This document shows positions 8,056 to 38,923 of a stretch of 64,000 nt of DNA, piece after piece. The position numbers and the translations under genes were made by a program. Within the stretch, counting starts at the first letter, position 1. The number at the start of each line of letters is the position of its first letter. The notes beneath the pieces were generated by a model. That model did no database searches and was not told the DNA's origin. It saw only the letters and a list, made by a program, of their open reading frames with translations. Source of the DNA: Escherichia coli (GTDB lineage Bacteria; Pseudomonadota; Gammaproteobacteria; Enterobacterales; Enterobacteriaceae); the NCBI RefSeq assembly GCF_003334315.1, contig NZ_QOWR01000007.1; one strand, written 5' to 3'.

Positions 8056-9060
8056 ATGCGTAAGTCAGTTATCGCGATTATCATCATCGTGCTGGTAGTG
8101 CTTTACATGTCTGTCTTTGTCGTCAAAGAAGGTGAGCGCGGTATTACGCTGCGTTTTGGTAAGGTACTGCGTGACGATGACAACAAACCTCTGGTTTATG
8201 AGCCGGGTCTGCATTTCAAGATACCGTTCATTGAAACGGTGAAAATGCTCGACGCACGTATTCAGACCATGGACAACCAGGCCGACCGCTTTGTGACCAA
8301 AGAGAAGAAAGACCTGATCGTCGACTCTTACATCAAATGGCGCATCAGCGATTTCAGCCGTTACTACCTGGCAACGGGTGGTGGCGACATTTCGCAAGCG
8401 GAAGTGCTGTTGAAACGTAAGTTCTCTGACCGTCTGCGTTCTGAAATTGGTCGCCTGGACGTGAAAGATATCGTCACCGATTCCCGTGGTCGTCTGACCC
8501 TCGAAGTACGTGACGCGCTGAACTCCGGTTCTGCGGGTACAGAAGATGAAGTTACTACCCCGGCGGCAGATAACGCCATTGCCGAAGCGGCAGAGCGCGT
8601 AACGGCTGAGACGAAGGGCAAAGTTCCGGTCATCAACCCGAACAGTATGGCGGCGCTGGGTATTGAAGTTGTCGATGTGCGAATTAAGCAGATCAACCTG
8701 CCTACCGAAGTGTCTGAAGCGATCTACAACCGTATGCGCGCCGAGCGTGAAGCGGTAGCGCGTCGTCACCGTTCACAAGGTCAGGAAGAAGCGGAAAAAC
8801 TGCGCGCGACTGCCGACTATGAAGTGACCAGAACGCTGGCAGAAGCTGAGCGTCAGGGCCGTATCATGCGTGGTGAAGGCGATGCCGAAGCAGCCAAACT
8901 GTTTGCTGATGCATTCAGTAAAGATCCGGACTTCTACGCATTCATCCGTAGCCTGCGTGCTTATGAGAACAGCTTCTCTGGCAATCAGGACGTGATGGTC
9001 ATGAGCCCGGATAGCGATTTCTTCCGCTACATGAAGACGCCGACTTCCGCAACGCGTTAA
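8056..9060 (+). CDS. hflC: FtsH protease modulator HflC
   Basis: 334 aa, TM helix plus SPFH domain; starts 3 bp after hflK. Confidence 0.93.
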   Translation: MRKSVIAIIIIVLVVLYMSVFVVKEGERGITLRFGKVLRDDDNKPLVYEPGLHFKIPFIETVKMLDARIQTMDNQADRFVTKEKKDLIVDSYIKWRISDFSRYYLATGGGDISQAEVLLKRKFSDRLRSEIGRLDVKDIVTDSRGRLTLEVRDALNSGSAGTEDEVTTPAADNAIAEAAERVTAETKGKVPVINPNSMAALGIEVVDVRIKQINLPTEVSEAIYNRMRAEREAVARRHRSQGQEEAEKLRATADYEVTRTLAEAERQGRIMRGEGDAEAAKLFADAFSKDPDFYAFIRSLRAYENSFSGNQDVMVMSPDSDFFRYMKTPTSATR

Positions 9061-9089
9061 TATAACGACTGCGGTACAGGTCAATAAAG

Positions 9090-9126
9090 CCACCGCATCC
9101 TCAGGGATGTCGGTGGTTTTCTTTTT
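9090..9126 (+). terminator. intrinsic terminator after hflC
   Basis: GC-rich stem ccaccgcatcc/ggatgtcggtgg followed by ttttcttttt. Confidence 0.55.
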
Positions 9127-9141
9127 CTATAAGGATAATGA

Positions 9142-9340
9142 ATGAATTCGACAATCTGGCTGGCGCTTGCCCTGGTTTTGGTACTGGAAGGTTTAGGGCC
9201 GATGCTTTACCCGAAGGCATGGAAGAAGATGATCATCTGCGATGACCAATTTGCCCGATAATATTTTACGTCGTTTTGGCGGTGGACTTGTGGTTGCGGG
9301 CGTTGTGGTCTACTACATGTTGAGGAAAACGATTAGCTGA
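9142..9340 (+). pseudogene. yjeT: yjeT (DUF2065 small membrane protein) interrupted by a +1 frameshift
   Basis: ATG 9142 encodes MNSTIWLALALVLVLEGLGPMLYPKAWKKMI then stops at 9259-9261; the +1 frame continues MTNLPDNILRRFGGGLVVAGVVVYYMLRKTIS to TGA 9338-9340. Deleting one A near 9235 joins them into a 65-codon ORF. Confidence 0.6.
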
Positions 9341-9440
9341 ACAAAAAACAGACTGATCGAGGTCATTTTTGAGTGCAAAAAGTGCTGTAACTCTGAAAAA
9401 GCGATGGTAGAATCCATTTTTAAGCAAACGGTGATTTTGA

Positions 9441-10742
<1,302 letters not shown>

Positions 10743-31414: not shown

Positions 31415-32692
31415 TTAGCTTGTCGCTAACTGTACTTGCGGTTCTTCATCTTTAACTTTGATAAGCGTCCACAGCGCAATGGCGCCAATAATGTCAAAGA
31501 AAGCCAGGGCAATAAAGAACGGCGCGAAGCCGATAATGTGAACGAATGCCCCGATAAACAGGTTGAAAATCAACTGACCGCTCCACGCACAGGCTCCTGC
31601 CATACCCACTGCGGTAGCTACTTCGTCTTTTTTGAACAGATCGCCACCCAGAGTTGCTGCTACAGTAGAAAGACATTGATGCGAGAACGCGCCAATACTA
31701 ATCAGTAATACGGCAATGTAGGGATTTTCGACAATACTCACCAGGCCAATCGTCATCATAATGACGGCTGCAATAGTGAAGGTAATTCTTCGTGAGTTAA
31801 TTAAACTCACGCCGCGATCGTGGAAGAACTTCGCGACAAAACCACTGGCTAAACAGCCGAGATCGCCCAGCAGGAAAGGCAGCCAGACGAACATGGCAAT
31901 TTCTTTCAGGCTAAAATGCAGCGTTTCGACGAAGAAAATCGGCACCCAGAAGTTAATGGTTCCCCATGCCGGGTCTGCGAGAAAACGCGCGATGCCAATC
32001 CCCCAGAAATTACGTTGGCTGAGGATATGCTTGATTGACGTTTTTTCTTTCTTATCTGTTTTAAGATGCTGTTCTTGCCCTGATTCAATATAGTGGCGCT
32101 CTTCATCAGAAAGGCGTTTGGCATCTTTCGGATCTTTATAACAAAAGAACCAAAATAAAGCCGCGAGCAAAGCAAGGCTACCTGAAACAATAAACGCAAA
32201 TTGCCAGCTATGAAACATAATGCACCAGGCAATCAACGGTGGAGCAAGCATCGCGCCGAGTGAGGTGCCCATATTGAAAACACCTGTCGCCACGCCACGC
32301 TCTTTTGCCGGGAACCATGTTGATGCGGTTTTTACACCCGCCGGAATTGCCGACGCTTCGCTGAAACCCATCAGGGCGCGCATAAATGCCAGACCTGACC
32401 ACGTTCCGGTTAGTGCATGGCCCATTGTCGCCAGGCCCCAAATTGCGGCACATATCGCAAAACTTAACTTCAGACCCACGGTATCAATAAAGAAGCCCAT
32501 TACCGGTTGCCCTAATGTATAGGCCAACTGGAATGCACTGACAATCCATGAATATTGCTCTTTAGTTATTCCGGTTGTCTCCATAATCGTTGGAGCCGCA
32601 ATACCTAACGCCGTTCTGTCCAGATAATTGATTACAGTGATAAAGCATACGAGGGCAATTATATGCCACCGGTAATTCTTTATTTTATTCAT
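31415..32692 (-). CDS. MFS permease, anion:cation symporter (ACS) family (ExuT/DgoT-like organic-anion or sugar-acid transporter)
   Basis: 425 aa, about 12 TM segments; N-terminal signature NYLDRTALGIAAP typical of ACS-family MFS; own AT-rich 92-bp upstream region. Confidence 0.8.
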   Translation of the reverse strand: MNKIKNYRWHIIALVCFITVINYLDRTALGIAAPTIMETTGITKEQYSWIVSAFQLAYTLGQPVMGFFIDTVGLKLSFAICAAIWGLATMGHALTGTWSGLAFMRALMGFSEASAIPAGVKTASTWFPAKERGVATGVFNMGTSLGAMLAPPLIAWCIMFHSWQFAFIVSGSLALLAALFWFFCYKDPKDAKRLSDEERHYIESGQEQHLKTDKKEKTSIKHILSQRNFWGIGIARFLADPAWGTINFWVPIFFVETLHFSLKEIAMFVWLPFLLGDLGCLASGFVAKFFHDRGVSLINSRRITFTIAAVIMMTIGLVSIVENPYIAVLLISIGAFSHQCLSTVAATLGGDLFKKDEVATAVGMAGACAWSGQLIFNLFIGAFVHIIGFAPFFIALAFFDIIGAIALWTLIKVKDEEPQVQLATS

Positions 32693-32784
32693 GTTTAAAC
32701 CTTTTAATTATATTAATAAACCCTGGTTGTTGGTGTTTCCGTGTAATAGGTAATAAAAATCAGGTACAGAGGAAATATTGAAAA

Positions 32785-34857
32785 TTATTGTGTGTAAATT
32801 TCTCCATTTAAAAATTCTGGCCAGTTTTTTTCAAAGTAAATACCGTTAATACACGGTTGCATACGTAAAGACTTCACTTCGGTAATAAAAGAACCTTGCG
32901 AATATTTAATCGTTAATCTGTGATTTTTGTCTTCAGCCCGTTCAGAGCGAAAACGCCATTCTTCTTTTGCGCCGCGACGAGTTTGTGGGAGGCATTTGCC
33001 TTGTGGATCAATAACCATCCGCGCCCCACGACTGCCACCACCTGCGTCAATATAATGCGTCAATTGCGTTAATACCGCGGCCGAAGTCAGCGCCATATGC
33101 CGCCACATAAATAGTTCGGCAATTTCGCCTGCGTGATTGATGGTTAAACCGTGTTGTTGTACAAACTCACTTAGCAGCAGGGCGTCACGGGTGGCGTGAC
33201 GAACTTTATCGGCATGACAAATAAATCCGGCGTAATCAGACATTCGCGCCTGGATTTTTTCTTTCACCGTTACCAGCGCCATTCCGTTCTCATTTACCAG
33301 TGCCTGAGCGATAACTTCTCTGACTATATTCAGAGATGAGGCTACCAGCTGCGCGACATCACCCTCAACAGACCGCTTTTGTGTGCAACCAATAAAGCGC
33401 GCCAGACGCACGGCAATAACCTGTCCGGCATTCAGCGCCGCACCGCCTGGTCGGGTAACGCCGTGAGTTCCGGCTACTTCTCCCACCGCAAAACAACCGG
33501 GCAGGGATGTTTGTCCCCAGATATCCACTTCAATGCCGCCATTCATGTGCTGATTATTCATGGCGAACTGCAGAGGCTGCGCGGTGAGATCGTAACCGTG
33601 CATCTTATACAGCGAGATAGACAGCGGATTCATTCGTTGCAGCCGTTCGATGGGCGATGCTGCCAGAGCGTCGTTATTTTCCAGATACGCGCGAACGTCG
33701 TCGTCCAGTCGATCTAATGTGAAGGGCAAATCACCAGGCACCGCTTCAGGATTGCGATTGAAATCCATAAACACCCGACGACCATGTTGCTGCTCTTGCG
33801 CCACCGCCATATCTAACAAGCTGGAGCCAAAATCCATCACCCGAGTGGCGTGGAACGGCCACTGATAGCCTTTACGGAAAATGTTTGAAGCCAGCTCCTG
33901 GGTGGTGCGATAGTAATCCGCGAGGAAGTTATACTCGTTACCCTCAGCATCCACGGAATAGATATACGGGATCACCTGTACATAGGTGCCGGATAAATTC
34001 CACGGAAACGTGCTACGCGGCGTGCCTATACCAAACTGGCTTTCGGTCAGATTGGTTAGCGTCAGGCCTTCCTCCAGCGCCAGCCCCAGCGAGCCAAAAC
34101 ATTTGTGTGGGTACACACTGTCGCGATAAAGCTCGCCAGGCCCTCCTGTTGCCAGTACCACATTGGGCGCAGTCACAATTGCCAGCCCCCAAGGGTTATG
34201 GGCGCGATGACCGGTCGCGAGGATTGCCCCCGCAACACGGTCTTCGCCGTTTTCGTCACGCTGATGCAGCAGTTTAATCACTGTTGCACTGGTCAACACT
34301 GGAATGGCGAGGCGCTGTACTTCTTCCAACAGCACTTTCACCATTAACCTTGAGGTACGCGGCCCACACGAGGTTGCACGCCCGGCTTCGTCATGGTCGG
34401 TTTGATAACGAAGAATCGCGCCATAGCGATCTTCCGGTAATTCCAGACCAAGATATTGCAACCCGCCAAGAGTGTGCAGAGAACCTACCGCTTCGACATA
34501 AGCGGTGTCGTGATCCATCGCCCCACCGCTCGCCAGTGCCTCTGCCAGTTTGGTGAAGTTGTCGCCGTTGCCCGCGGTAGCGGCGGTAAACAGTGTCTGT
34601 TTATCGGAACCAGAACATGCCGACGTCCCCATATATAACCCGGCAGTGGCGATCAGCACATTTTGCTGGCGGCGTTTAAGTTCCACAGCTGCACGCAGCC
34701 CGGCTGCACCACTGCCGACTACCAGGGCATCTGTTTGCCAGAGTGGGTAATCAACACCGTCTACCGTGACAACCCATGCGGGCTCTGCCTGTGCAAAACC
34801 CTTTGGGAAAGTAACGTGCGTCAGCGCATCAAGGATGGTGTCATCAAGCTGACTCAT
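32785..34857 (-). CDS. FAD-dependent oxidoreductase, fumarate reductase/succinate dehydrogenase flavoprotein-like (FAD_binding_2) with extra C-terminal domain
   Basis: 690 aa; Rossmann dinucleotide motif DALVVGSGAAGLRAA; C-terminal FAD-contact motif GCFAVGEVAGTHGVTRPGGAALNAG; start overlaps upstream stop by 4 bp (ATGA). Confidence 0.8.
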   Translation of the reverse strand: MSQLDDTILDALTHVTFPKGFAQAEPAWVVTVDGVDYPLWQTDALVVGSGAAGLRAAVELKRRQQNVLIATAGLYMGTSACSGSDKQTLFTAATAGNGDNFTKLAEALASGGAMDHDTAYVEAVGSLHTLGGLQYLGLELPEDRYGAILRYQTDHDEAGRATSCGPRTSRLMVKVLLEEVQRLAIPVLTSATVIKLLHQRDENGEDRVAGAILATGHRAHNPWGLAIVTAPNVVLATGGPGELYRDSVYPHKCFGSLGLALEEGLTLTNLTESQFGIGTPRSTFPWNLSGTYVQVIPYIYSVDAEGNEYNFLADYYRTTQELASNIFRKGYQWPFHATRVMDFGSSLLDMAVAQEQQHGRRVFMDFNRNPEAVPGDLPFTLDRLDDDVRAYLENNDALAASPIERLQRMNPLSISLYKMHGYDLTAQPLQFAMNNQHMNGGIEVDIWGQTSLPGCFAVGEVAGTHGVTRPGGAALNAGQVIAVRLARFIGCTQKRSVEGDVAQLVASSLNIVREVIAQALVNENGMALVTVKEKIQARMSDYAGFICHADKVRHATRDALLLSEFVQQHGLTINHAGEIAELFMWRHMALTSAAVLTQLTHYIDAGGGSRGARMVIDPQGKCLPQTRRGAKEEWRFRSERAEDKNHRLTIKYSQGSFITEVKSLRMQPCINGIYFEKNWPEFLNGEIYTQ

Positions 34858-36395
34858 GCATCCTCCATCGGCGTAAACAGGCTACTTTCCATCAGGCGTG
34901 GATGCTTGATAATTGGACGGAAGGCCATATACGGCAGAATGTCGCGCTCAATCTCCACACTCGGTGCGATTTCAATTAATTCAACGCCTTCTGCCGTTAA
35001 CTGGAATACTGCGCGTTCAGTGATATACAACACTTCCTGACCACTTTGCTGTGCGTAGGCGGCGCTAAAAGTGATTTTTTCCACCTGGGTAACCAGTTTA
35101 GGGATTTGACCTGACTGGGCGATATGCAAGCCATCTGGCGTTACATCAATCTTGCTACCTTTGGCGTCGAACGTGCCGCAGAACACCACTTTACGGGCGT
35201 TTTGCGCAATTTCGAGAAAACCGCCGGGGCCAATGAGATTGCCATTGAGATGGGAGACGTTGACGTTACCGTACTGATCCATCTCTCCCATGCCGAGGAA
35301 GGTGATATCGATCCCTCCGCCACTGTAGAACTCAAATTGATCGAGTGATGGAATAATGGCATCGGCGTTGCGGGCACAACCAAACAGAGCATCATCAAGC
35401 ATCATGCCGTTATGTACGCCTTGCTCGACGCTCAGCCATAAACTTTGGTAAGGAACGCCTTCGCGCAGCGCTACGCCTGGAATACCGCCAGGAATACCAA
35501 AGCCAAAGTTGGTTGAAGCGCCAGCCACCAGTTCGCGTGCTGCCCGACGGGCAATCAGGCGGCGCACCGGATGACTAACCAGTTCAATAGCGTCGTTAGA
35601 ACTCAGACGGCGATGTTGACCGCTAATGGTCAGGTCGTAACCGCCAAGATAGGTTTGCGGTTGTTCGCGGTGTTCAACGATGCCATCAACCAGAATGCCC
35701 GGTAATTTGACCCGGCGTGGTTCAATCGCGCCAGCTTCCAGCACATCGCGTACCTGTACGAACACTTTGCCGCCGCTGTTGTGTGCTGCCAGCGCCATGG
35801 AATAGCTATCCATATCAATCGCTTCTTCTTCAAGGCTGACGTTGCCTCGAGGATCGGCATAAGTGCCACGCAAAATCGCGTAATCCACTTTGAAAGGGCG
35901 ATAACGAAGTTTGGTTTCACCGTCGATTTCAATCAGTTCTACCAGGTCGTCGGTAGTGCATTCATTCGACTTACCGCCGCCATTGCGTGGATCAACAAAC
36001 GATCCCAGCCCAACGTGGGTAAAAAGCCCCGGACGTCCGGCGCCGATCTCCCGTAGCAGTGCCTGAATCACGCCACCAGGAAAGCAGTAGGCTTCAATCG
36101 TGTTATTTTTTACCAGCGCCTGCATTTTGGGCGACCAGGTAAAGTGCCCGGCAATAATGCGTTTGAGCATCTCTGCGTGCGCAAAACGATTAGTGCCTTT
36201 GCAGTCGCGATCGCCAATACCCAGCGAGTGGATTAGCGTCAGGTCGCGAGGGTGTCCGGTTTGCAGGAAACGCGCTTCAATAGCAGCCAGAATATGGTCG
36301 GCTTCTACCATACCGCCGCCGTTACCGCTAATAGCAATAGTCGCACCGTCCTGAATTTGCGCCGCCAGTGCCTCGGCGGTTGTTATCTTACGCAT
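34854..36395 (-). CDS. fused alpha/beta family-I CoA-transferase (YdiF / acetate CoA-transferase type)
   Basis: 513 aa; blocks GSFVDPRNGGGKSNE, FEFYSGGGIDITFLGMGEMDQYGNVNVSHLNG and YITERAVFQLTAEGVELIEIAPSVEIERDIL parallel my recollection of E. coli YdiF; AAGGA Shine-Dalgarno. Confidence 0.85.
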   Translation of the reverse strand: MRKITTAEALAAQIQDGATIAISGNGGGMVEADHILAAIEARFLQTGHPRDLTLIHSLGIGDRDCKGTNRFAHAEMLKRIIAGHFTWSPKMQALVKNNTIEAYCFPGGVIQALLREIGAGRPGLFTHVGLGSFVDPRNGGGKSNECTTDDLVELIEIDGETKLRYRPFKVDYAILRGTYADPRGNVSLEEEAIDMDSYSMALAAHNSGGKVFVQVRDVLEAGAIEPRRVKLPGILVDGIVEHREQPQTYLGGYDLTISGQHRRLSSNDAIELVSHPVRRLIARRAARELVAGASTNFGFGIPGGIPGVALREGVPYQSLWLSVEQGVHNGMMLDDALFGCARNADAIIPSLDQFEFYSGGGIDITFLGMGEMDQYGNVNVSHLNGNLIGPGGFLEIAQNARKVVFCGTFDAKGSKIDVTPDGLHIAQSGQIPKLVTQVEKITFSAAYAQQSGQEVLYITERAVFQLTAEGVELIEIAPSVEIERDILPYMAFRPIIKHPRLMESSLFTPMEDA

Positions 36396-36404
36396 ACAAT
36401 TTCC

Positions 36405-37181
36405 TTATTGATTATGGAAGCTCACGCTACTTTTTTCGGCAAAGGCGCGCGTCGCCTGCTGGCAATCCTGAGTGGCAGACATTAATCCGGCCAGTAGCTG
36501 GTGCGGGTAATCGGCATGTTTATTTTCCAGTGCCAGAATCAGTTGCTTAATATGCGCCAGTGCCACCGGACCGCATTTTTCCAGCTGCGCTAACTGGTTC
36601 GCCATCCAGCTTTCCACCTGTTCTTTTTCTACCACTTCATCAATTAAATTCGCCGCCTGGGCTTCCTGCGCCGTCAGGCGTTTACCCAGCATCAGCATCT
36701 GGCGACCGACCACCGGACCAACCTGATTAAGCACACGTTCAATGCCCATCCAGCCAGGCACCATGCCGAGCATCACTTCCGGGTTAGAGAATTTCGCGCC
36801 GGGGCGGGCAATACGAATATCGCAGCACAAGGCCAGTTCAATACCACCGCCGATGGTATGACCGTTGAGATTCGCAACGGTTAATTGGGGTAAGTTTCGC
36901 AGGCGATTAAAAACGTCATTACCGCGTTTAATCCATTTTCTGCCCATATCTAATGGCGAATAGGCCGACCACGATTTAATATCGCCACCCGCACAAAAGA
37001 ATTTATCGCCGGTTGCCGTTAATTCGACTAATCGTAATGTGGTGTCGTTTTCAATTTCATTTAAATAATGGTCGAGAGATTCGATCATTTCTTCATTAAT
37101 AGCATGACATTTATCTTCACGGTTCAATGTCAGGCGGCAAGAAGCCGCCGCTCTGCTGAACAGAACGGGTTGGTCACTCAT
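36405..37181 (-). CDS. enoyl-CoA hydratase/isomerase (crotonase-family) protein
   Basis: 258 aa from ATG 37181 (MSDQPVLF...; AAGGA 6 nt upstream); crotonase motifs FCAGGDIK and GHTIGGGIELALCCD; the track's longer start at 37187 sits directly against the Shine-Dalgarno. Confidence 0.8.
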   Translation of the reverse strand: MSDQPVLFSRAAASCRLTLNREDKCHAINEEMIESLDHYLNEIENDTTLRLVELTATGDKFFCAGGDIKSWSAYSPLDMGRKWIKRGNDVFNRLRNLPQLTVANLNGHTIGGGIELALCCDIRIARPGAKFSNPEVMLGMVPGWMGIERVLNQVGPVVGRQMLMLGKRLTAQEAQAANLIDEVVEKEQVESWMANQLAQLEKCGPVALAHIKQLILALENKHADYPHQLLAGLMSATQDCQQATRAFAEKSSVSFHNQ

Positions 37182-37190
37182 GATCATTCC

Positions 37191-38033
37191 TTAACAATAA
37201 TGCGCGATGCGATCGACGCTAATATCCAGCGTGCTGTTAATATCTTTCTGCCACCAGTAAGGCGAGAATATTTCCAGTTCTATAGCGCCATTAAATCCGG
37301 CGTTTTCAACCAGCCGACGAATTGACGGAATATTGATGACGCCATCTCCCGGCATTCCCCGGTCATTGACCAGATCGGTGGTCGGTACTAACCAGTCGGA
37401 AACATGAAACGCGAGGATGCGTTTTCCGGCACGCAGGATCTGACTGGCGAGCTCCGGATCCCACCAGACGTGATAAACATCCACCGCCACGCCGAGGCCA
37501 AACTCACCATCGGGATCGAGTTCATCACACCAGTCCAGCGCCTGACGTAACGTGCACAGGCAAGAGCGGTCGGCAGCAGTCATCGGGTGCAGCGGCTCCA
37601 GCGCAATTGGCACGCCGACATCTTTCGAATGTGGCAGCAACTGGCGAATCCCTTGTTTTACTTGTTCCCGCGCTTCGTACAAATCTTTTGTTCCCTGCGG
37701 TAACCCGCCAACCACCTGCATATAACAGGCGGCGTTAAGCACCGCTGCGTCGTCCAGCGCCCGGCGGTTATCATCAATCGCCAGTTTGCGTTCCGCCTGT
37801 GTCGGCGCGGTGTAGTAAGTGCTACGGCACAAACCGGAAACGCTCATGTTACTGGCAGCAAGCTGGCGGGCGATTTGCTGGAGATCTTCACCCTGCAACT
37901 CCCTGCGCCAGGGGGCAATTGCGCCAATACCACGCGCGGCGCAGGCATCAATAATGGCGGGTAGAGGCGTTTTATAGCCCAGTGTTGCGGTATTGATACT
38001 GAATAAATCCGGGCGTTGTAACAGATCTCTCAT
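37191..38033 (-). CDS. sugar-phosphate isomerase/epimerase-like protein (xylose-isomerase-like TIM barrel)
   Basis: 280 aa; composition typical of AP-endonuclease-2/xylose-isomerase TIM barrels (IALEPLHP..., HVSDW...); GAGG Shine-Dalgarno. Confidence 0.75.
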   Translation of the reverse strand: MRDLLQRPDLFSINTATLGYKTPLPAIIDACAARGIGAIAPWRRELQGEDLQQIARQLAASNMSVSGLCRSTYYTAPTQAERKLAIDDNRRALDDAAVLNAACYMQVVGGLPQGTKDLYEAREQVKQGIRQLLPHSKDVGVPIALEPLHPMTAADRSCLCTLRQALDWCDELDPDGEFGLGVAVDVYHVWWDPELASQILRAGKRILAFHVSDWLVPTTDLVNDRGMPGDGVINIPSIRRLVENAGFNGAIELEIFSPYWWQKDINSTLDISVDRIAHYC

Positions 38034-38042
38034 GATTCAGCC

Positions 38043-38834
38043 TCAGAAGCGCGGCATACTTAAGCCGCCGTCGATGGCGACCGCCTGACCACAGGTGTAA
38101 ATCAGTTTACCTTCCGCCATCGCGCGGACGGTGGAAGCAATATCAGCCGGATAACCCCAACGTCCCCACGGCACCAGACCTTTGGCAATCAGTTCGTCGT
38201 AATAAGCCGTTGCCGGAATAGTCATATCGGTTTTGATGAGACCAGGGCGCACTTCATAAACGCCAATTTGTTCATTACAAAGGCGAGCAGCAAACAGACG
38301 AGCAGCGGCAGAAACGGCGGTTTTGGCAATGGTGTATTCGCCGCGATTCATCGCCAGCATGATGGCGTTGATGGAACTGACGAAAATAATCGAGCGGTGC
38401 GGCAGTTCCGCTTCCGGTTTCGGCTGTGCCAGTAAGCGCTTACTGAATGCCTGAGCAAGGAAGAACGGCGCGCGGGTGTTAATGGCAATGTTTTGATCGA
38501 AGCTGTCTGGTTCGAGGTCGAGGAGGTCACCGCGTTTTTTCACTGAAATCCCCGCGTTATTGAGCAGGCAGTCCAGACGCCCCCACTGGTTTTGTGCCGC
38601 GTCGAGCATCTCTTCATGCAAGGAGAGATCGCCGACATCGGCAGGGAAGCAAATGACTTCCACACCTTCTGCCAGACATTCCTGTTGTGTGGCATGTAAT
38701 TTTTCTACGCTGTCAGCATCGGGGCGATCGTTAATCAGCAGGTTAAATCCGCCACGAGCAAGCTCCAGCGCACAGCCCTTTCCAATACCACGAGCGGCTC
38801 CGGTAATCACGGCAACAGGACGAGTGGATTTCAT
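38043..38834 (-). CDS. short-chain dehydrogenase/reductase (SDR)
   Basis: 263 aa; cofactor motif ITGAARGIGKG, NNAG, catalytic YTIAK; first gene of the minus-strand operon. Confidence 0.85.
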   Translation of the reverse strand: MKSTRPVAVITGAARGIGKGCALELARGGFNLLINDRPDADSVEKLHATQQECLAEGVEVICFPADVGDLSLHEEMLDAAQNQWGRLDCLLNNAGISVKKRGDLLDLEPDSFDQNIAINTRAPFFLAQAFSKRLLAQPKPEAELPHRSIIFVSSINAIMLAMNRGEYTIAKTAVSAAARLFAARLCNEQIGVYEVRPGLIKTDMTIPATAYYDELIAKGLVPWGRWGYPADIASTVRAMAEGKLIYTCGQAVAIDGGLSMPRF

Positions 38835-38879
38835 ACAATAACTCTCTTTTTTGAATATTGTTTTCTAAGTGACAATTAG

Positions 38880-38923
38880 CTTGCGACGTGCCGCAAGAAA
38901 GATCAACCATCTGGTTGGTTGAT
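38880..38923. promoter_or_regulatory. candidate TetR operator(s): two palindromes in the divergent intergenic region
   Basis: cttgcg-acgtgc-cgcaag (38880-38897) and atcaacca-tctggt-tggttgat overlapping caacca-tc-tggttg (38902-38923), inside the 211-bp AT-rich gap between the operon start and the TetR start. Confidence 0.35.

Follow-up and report, generated by a model that had tools for sequence, protein, structure and literature searches.

A recurrent one-base frameshift in Escherichia coli yjeT at a candidate quasi-palindrome template-switch hotspot

In the stretch of E. coli DNA analysed here (64,000 nucleotides, hereafter the window), an extra A at position 9235 splits yjeT, the gene for a 65-aa DUF2065 protein, into two open reading frames (ORFs), as was evident from ORF reading and from alignment. 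Genome comparison indicates that the same insertion arose independently in many E. coli lineages. The explanation that we favour, and consider probable, is that the frameshift is real and inactivating and that the site at which it recurs is a quasi-palindrome hotspot of template switching. The original prediction, which concerned the broken frame, overlooked both the independent recurrence of the insertion and its completion of a palindrome.

Results

The yjeT reading frame is broken by a single A

The locus contains the following features.

8056..9060, plus strand: hflC, an intact 334-aa ORF; WP_001232412.1 is at the same position in strain AHM9C68I.
9090..9127, plus strand: intrinsic terminator after hflC, stem CCACCGCATCC / GGATGTCGGTGG and then T-run TTTTCTTTTTC, read from the sequence.
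9131..9135, plus strand: putative Shine-Dalgarno-like AAGGA, 6 nt 5' of the yjeT ATG, from the sequence.
9142..9340, plus strand: yjeT pseudogene (DUF2065), 199 nt, not 198.
9142..9261, plus strand: truncated YjeT ORF of 39 codons, MNSTIWLALALVLVLEGLGPMLYPKAWKKMIICDDQFAR, ending at TAA.
9235..9235, plus strand: inserted A, from alignments; the sole indel relative to AHM9C68I and CP53.
9242..9340, plus strand: second yjeT ORF of 32 codons, MTNLPDNILRRFGGGLVVAGVVVYYMLRKTIS, in the native frame from Met34 and containing the second hydrophobic helix.
9444..10742, plus strand: purA, an intact 432-aa ORF; annotated as purA in relatives.

Alignment with the intact yjeT of CP53 and AHM9C68I placed the inserted base in the context ATGATC-A-TCTGCG, and relative to CP53 the extra A was the sole difference in 221 nt. 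The wild-type reading of the site, without the extra A, is ATGATCTCTGCG, and the wild-type 30-bp segment at the site is GGAAGAAGATGATCTCTGCGATGACCAATT. When A9235 is removed, yjeT has 65 codons, as had been predicted, and its product is identical to RefSeq WP_001089296.1, a DUF2065 protein. The repaired 65-aa YjeT matches Pfam PF09838 over model positions 1-56 of 56 (E=6.8e-21). The original prediction had also named the gene as yjeT and the additional base as an A at 9235, all of which the alignments with intact E. coli yjeT bore out, and the ORFs agreed with its description of a 39-codon frame from 9142 that continues to 9340 one frame over.

An 11-residue hydropathy scan of the repaired YjeT located two hydrophobic helices, at about residues 3-14 and 44-51, and the frame break sits in the loop separating them. 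The 39-aa product consists of 31 native residues, comprising the first hydrophobic helix, followed by eight out-of-frame residues (ICDDQFAR); this fragment too carries the PF09838 tag in the protein collection. Compared with YjeT/DUF2065 proteins (PF09838; YJET_ECOLI; WP_001089296.1), the window gene is identical apart from A9235 and stands in the same order, hflC-yjeT-purA, but its frame shifts past codon 31, leaving the first helix alone in frame, and it lacks the uninterrupted frame of about 65 codons with two helices. Because the frame is broken at 9235, yjeT of the window is a pseudogene of the DUF2065 family.

The insertion left hflC and purA untouched, and the conserved position of yjeT is kept in the window: the gene lies, in agreement with the original prediction, between the hflC terminator and purA (hflC ends at 9060 and purA starts at 9444). 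A terminator scan detected the inner stem (9095..9110) and T-tail 3' of hflC. The yjeT gene is part of the complex yjeF...hflC-yjeT-purA...rlmB operon (PMC4161252). At position 9335, in the last yjeT codon, the window and its close relatives have AGC (...TIS) and K-12 has GGC (...TIG); both forms of intact YjeT are common, each being present on at least 1000 contigs.

Comparison with the nearest complete genome

A frameshift of this kind could be a sequencing or assembly error, in which case the A would be absent from the strain's DNA and would have entered the sequence as a random consensus error or as a systematic error at a GATC-containing palindrome-like motif. We compared the whole 64-kb window with the nearest complete genome, AHM9C68I (NZ_CP104618). 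From 1 to 25000 the A at 9235 was the single indel, alongside 5 SNPs; from 25001 to 64000 there were 7 SNPs, 0 small indels, and one IS1 present in AHM9C68I only. With 12 SNPs, one IS1 and one base separating the two sequences, the assembly is not indel-prone, and a noisy assembly was ruled out by the lack of any other small indel in 64 kb relative to AHM9C68I. The site itself (ATC|TCT) is not a homopolymer, and the inserted A copies neither neighbour, which also argues against an error. What speaks for one is that the 406-bp region has no 100% match among the RefSeq complete genomes.

The comparison gave two further observations. At about 32811..32820, AHM9C68I has an IS1B of about 0.77 kb between genes for an FAD-dependent oxidoreductase and an MFS transporter; the window lacks it, and no other large difference separates the two over 64 kb. 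On the minus strand, cpdB is interrupted where a 20-bp sequence, GATATCAGCCCCTTCGATAC, is perfectly duplicated in tandem (two copies at 47343..47381), which gives ORFs at 47327..48196 and 46224..47309 (289 aa and 361 aa). The cpdB gene of AHM9C68I is in the same split state and is flagged 'frameshifted' by RefSeq; the cpdB pseudogene is therefore inherited, unlike that of yjeT.

The same insertion is present on many E. coli backgrounds

We searched the complete E. coli genomes by megablast with a 41-mer centred on the inserted A; megablast demands an exact 28-mer, so that this query matches insertion-bearing genomes only. The +A allele was present in 7 of the 5426 genomes, namely SC516, APEC 102026, DETEC-S566, UTAK-1, MB06101, OkiPb01711, and F2_81, and the window yjeT differed by one base from that of the other 5419. 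The change was specific. Insertion of C or of T at the site was found in 0 of 5426 complete genomes each, as was each of the two reciprocal one-base deletions of T. A scan of JGI metagenomes was of little use here: it gave no match to any inserted base at the site, and only six wild-type matches were present there.

RefSeq calls yjeT 'frameshifted', with no protein accession, in all seven carriers, and in each of them yjeT is the sole frameshifted gene within the 18 kb examined. The 18-kb flanks of the carriers lie 94-416 SNPs from the window and 89-412 SNPs from one another, the sole exception being the pair UTAK-1 and OkiPb01711, whose flanks are identical. The complete genomes thus place the allele on at least six divergent backgrounds. 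UTAK-1 is from cattle in the USA and OkiPb01711, an O84:H2 STEC, from cattle in Japan; their lineage comes from separate submitters on two continents, and its allele is present on two further GenBank assemblies too.

Nearest relatives were intact for five carrier lineages, that of the window included. Several genomes with intact yjeT are identical to APEC 102026 over 18 kb save for a one-base gap; the nearest genomes to F2_81 and to SC516 have an intact gene, with a few SNPs in addition to the gap; and the next-nearest genomes to the UTAK-1/OkiPb01711 pair are intact.

The exact 39-aa product was present on about 460 public contigs in a protein collection drawn from NCBI, JGI, Logan, and ENA. 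It has six variants that differ by one residue, every one with the ending KMIICDDQFAR (KIIICDDQFAR in P0019). Such an IIC tail can come from +A only, since +T, +C, and +G would give IFC, ILC, and IVC, and the protein cluster of the truncated form contains IIC tails only. Contigs read from the collection add three flanking haplotypes, and at least 10 distinct 3.1-kb haplotypes bear +A; with the nearest relatives intact, these haplotypes indicate that the identical +A recurs. The ...TIG version of the 32-aa second ORF was called on 26 ENA contigs.

The carriers also bear on the question of sequencing error. Most of them are single, isolated tips with intact relatives, a pattern that is expected from artefacts as well. 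At least one, OkiPb01711, is a Nanopore-only assembly, and one carrier contig (L015) plainly contains many errors, which break hflC and purA as well. On the other side, five genomes from the same Nanopore-only pipeline as OkiPb01711 are intact, the allele is shared by descent between UTAK-1 and OkiPb01711, and it is present on contigs with names suggesting short-read assemblers (one 'k141_', MEGAHIT-style, and several 'METAG-scaffold'). An error would also have to account for a single kind of insertion, never +C or +T, that RefSeq flags identically in seven complete genomes with no other frameshifted gene nearby. An artefact of long-read platforms was largely rejected, as the allele is found in varied assembly kinds, dates, and countries. 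The original prediction had left the choice between a pseudogene and a sequencing indel; the evidence favours a real mutation, and assembly error is retained as a rival that we judge unlikely. On these comparisons we hold with good confidence that the strain-specific yjeT pseudogene is real and that the A is truly present.

A single origin followed by spread through short patches of homologous recombination would also place one allele on many backgrounds. Carrier pairs share identical tracts of 322-1498 bp around the insertion, and a short patch would carry no other marker, given how little the yjeT region varies: in 5215 of 5426 genomes the identity across the 406 bp is 99% or more. Such spread, however, needs about 10 imports of an allele with a frequency of about 0.1%, each in a tract shorter than 0.3-1.5 kb. 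In the window the patch must stop within 100 bp downstream, because the window has AGC at 9335 and all 13 of the other carriers examined have GGC, +A with an AGC last codon being found in the window only. Nor does recombination account for the inserted base being precisely the one that completes the palindrome. We consider this route very unlikely.

The inserted base completes two overlapping inverted repeats

Inspection of the sequence around A9235 revealed two inverted repeats that involve the added base.

9227..9238, plus strand: perfect 12-nt palindrome AGATGATCATCT, created by A9235 and verified by computation.
9230..9248, no strand assigned: second inverted repeat TGATCATC-TGC-GATGACCA, from a minus-strand terminator-like scan.

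In the wild type the palindrome site reads AGATGATC-TCT, with one T unpaired; the 12-nt palindrome includes a GATC (Dam) site. The second repeat comprises 8 bp with 7 of 8 Watson-Crick pairs and a 3-nt loop, and within it A9235 pairs with T9243, which is unpaired in the wild type. The wild-type sequence GATGA-TC_TC-TGC-GATGA is thus a double quasi-palindrome: TC_TC is an imperfect complement of both flanking GATGA copies, and each time the unpaired T calls for an A. The added base is the one dictated by the opposite arm in both repeats.

The window allows 191,877 distinct single-base insertions, and in 561 of them (0.29%) the inserted base would become part of a newly formed palindrome of 12 nt or longer; the palindrome at the site had itself been spotted post hoc. 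DNA folding of the mutant gave -2.2 kcal/mol for the plus strand and -3.3 kcal/mol for the minus strand, and 0 for the wild type, with hairpin z-scores that were not significant. The hairpins being weak and statistically unremarkable, the structural argument is one of complementarity, not stability.

The plus strand is the leading strand in the window, as judged from GC skew (+0.039), Chi sites (12:1), and KOPS (3:0). The skew was negative (-0.036) in 32001..40000 and positive in the remainder of the window; that segment overlaps unnamed genes for a TetR regulator, a 3-ketoacyl-ACP reductase, a CoA transferase, an FAD oxidoreductase, and an MFS transporter.

Consequence of the insertion for YjeT

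Loss of YjeT function is likely in carriers, because the in-frame product contains the first helix only and ATG 9242, from which the second ORF would start, lacks a proper ribosome-binding site: on reading the sequence, none that was convincing was present within 5-9 nt of it. The two halves of YjeT might still be made.

We considered whether the split gene could be functional, either through a programmed +1 ribosomal frameshift or as two separate one-helix peptides. Several features would suit such an arrangement. The break falls in the inter-helix loop and the second ORF begins at the native Met34; a +1 slip at CGA-TAA would yield a 65-aa protein with 8 loop residues changed; and termination-reinitiation is conceivable, the first stop being 17 nt past the second ATG. 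Programmed +1 frameshifting is known from prfB, which likewise has two overlapping frames whose joining gives the full-length protein. Unlike prfB, however, the yjeT arrangement is not conserved, its ancestral state is single-frame, and no slippery or stimulatory elements were found on reading 9220..9265, neither a slippery motif nor a Shine-Dalgarno-like stimulator preceding the stop. No Rfam match or RNA structure was found in 8500..10000. The original prediction had named a conserved two-frame structure as what would speak against a pseudogene or an indel; the arrangement is present in 0.13% of the genomes. Programmed frameshifting or recoding was rejected on these grounds, and together with the weak context of ATG 9242 they make a functional two-frame gene extremely unlikely.

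Selection alone could in principle account for the carriers if loss of yjeT were advantageous in some niches, for example in livestock-associated strains. The carriers are largely from chicken, cattle, and pig, the allele persists in the O84:H2 STEC lineage in the USA and Japan, and a Keio-type yjeT deletion is viable with no strong phenotype reported. Selection should nevertheless yield varied disruptions, whereas here one allele dominates: it is on about 460 contigs, and no other truncated form exceeds 70. Most of those others that were inspected trace to homopolymer errors, to the gene caller's choice of start, or to chimeras. Conservation of the protein is otherwise strong, with an intact gene in 99.9% of complete genomes. 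Selection alone is for these reasons an improbable explanation. We regard as equally improbable a high-rate, one-way contingency switch, in which template switching at the quasi-palindrome would repeatedly turn off this conserved membrane protein, encoded beside hflKC, or split it into two one-helix peptides, the off state being tolerated or even favoured in some animal-associated lineages. A phase-variable contingency locus was considered and set aside, ATC|TCT not being a repeat tract.

YjeT falls in one 90%-identity cluster with Citrobacter. A structure search found no solved structure of YjeT, and a literature search found no papers mentioning DUF2065. The reports found on yjeT mention it incidentally: it showed 3.1-fold induction in a bleomycin-treated recA strain, was an overexpression hit in an Ala-Ala screen, had a Tn-seq value of -1.38 in Dickeya, and was listed with the Salmonella genes needed to resist starvation stress.

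Other truncated YjeT entries in protein collections

Other truncated YjeT entries (36-aa and 45-aa forms) were inspected as a test of general decay of the gene. General decay was rejected: these entries comprised homopolymer indels from error-prone assemblies, a single nonsense change, one junction with an adapter, one chimera, and intact genes for which the gene caller had simply chosen another start. The broken yjeT of L015 (GCA_046575635.1) and of L019-L021 (ENA and NCTC assemblies) is in visibly indel-ridden sequence; among these, hflC and purA are split and several homopolymer changes occur within 250 bp. A Logan contig from ERR11802483 has an apparent Nextera transposase adapter, GATGTGTATAAGAGACAG, joined directly to yjeT codon 29 at the start of the contig; the protein collection consequently includes a spurious YjeT fragment of 36 aa. 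Because some source assemblies are indel-ridden, the counts of truncated YjeT in protein collections include artefacts.

Discussion

From the insertion, its uniqueness in the window, its recurrence on different backgrounds, its specificity, and the completion of both repeats, we infer a template switch during replication as the mechanism. The nascent strand would briefly copy the opposite arm, and the switch would add precisely the A that the unpaired T lacks as a partner. With the plus strand leading, +A would follow from copying of the upstream GATGA by the growing leading strand; alternatively, a lagging-strand fold-back on the downstream arm, with the 3-nt loop, would give the same +A. An outcome of +A only fits a leading-strand switch onto the upstream arm, with the same product expected from the downstream arm on the lagging strand. 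In the lineage of the window strain the event would be very recent. The double quasi-palindrome of the wild type probably underlies the independent +A in many lineages, and this short hotspot is, on balance, the likeliest cause of the recurrence.

Several points stand against this mechanism. The inverted repeats are short, with arms of 5-8 bp, their predicted hairpins are weak, the palindrome was spotted post hoc, and the reciprocal deletion of T, which the model allows, was never seen in 5426 genomes. Strand bias together with the presence of two templates for +A could explain the missing deletions.

The quasi-palindrome hotspots studied so far generally have longer arms, and quasi-palindrome-templated frameshifts have been examined mostly with engineered reporters. 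Relative to those hotspots, the arms in the window are much shorter, two overlapping repeats specify the same base, and the evidence for yjeT is from natural populations only. Quasi-palindrome mutation is an established class of E. coli hotspot in which imperfect repeats are made more perfect with a strand bias (PMC7202029); the Ripley 1982 model, the thyA hotspot of Dutra and Lovett 2006, and the lacZ QP5/QP6 reporters are summarised in the same source. Criteria for such a hotspot are a repeat-dependent rate, the involvement of ExoI/ExoVII, and stimulation by AZT or fluoroquinolones (PMC7202029 and, in part, work of the Lovett laboratory). As in that class, the frameshift in the window makes an incomplete inverted repeat perfect and is seen repeatedly at a single site, with one outcome of two. 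The known strand bias could account for the single outcome, but a lagging-strand switch on the downstream arm would give the same base.

As regards annotation, yjeT is treated in seven RefSeq genomes exactly as PGAP-flagged frameshifted pseudogenes are. Unlike ordinary ones, it shows an identical non-homopolymer insertion on many unrelated backgrounds. The same allele is real in other strains, and the yjeT pseudogene should therefore not be 'corrected' automatically in annotation.

The yjeT pseudogene is in itself ordinary, and no major question is altered by it. It offers a candidate natural quasi-palindrome-templated frameshift that is visible across thousands of genomes, in a short, easily cloned sequence where two overlapping imperfect repeats specify one base. 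For the biology of E. coli, the recurrent and sometimes persistent loss of the gene suggests that YjeT, conserved as it is, may be dispensable in nature, at least in some lineages.
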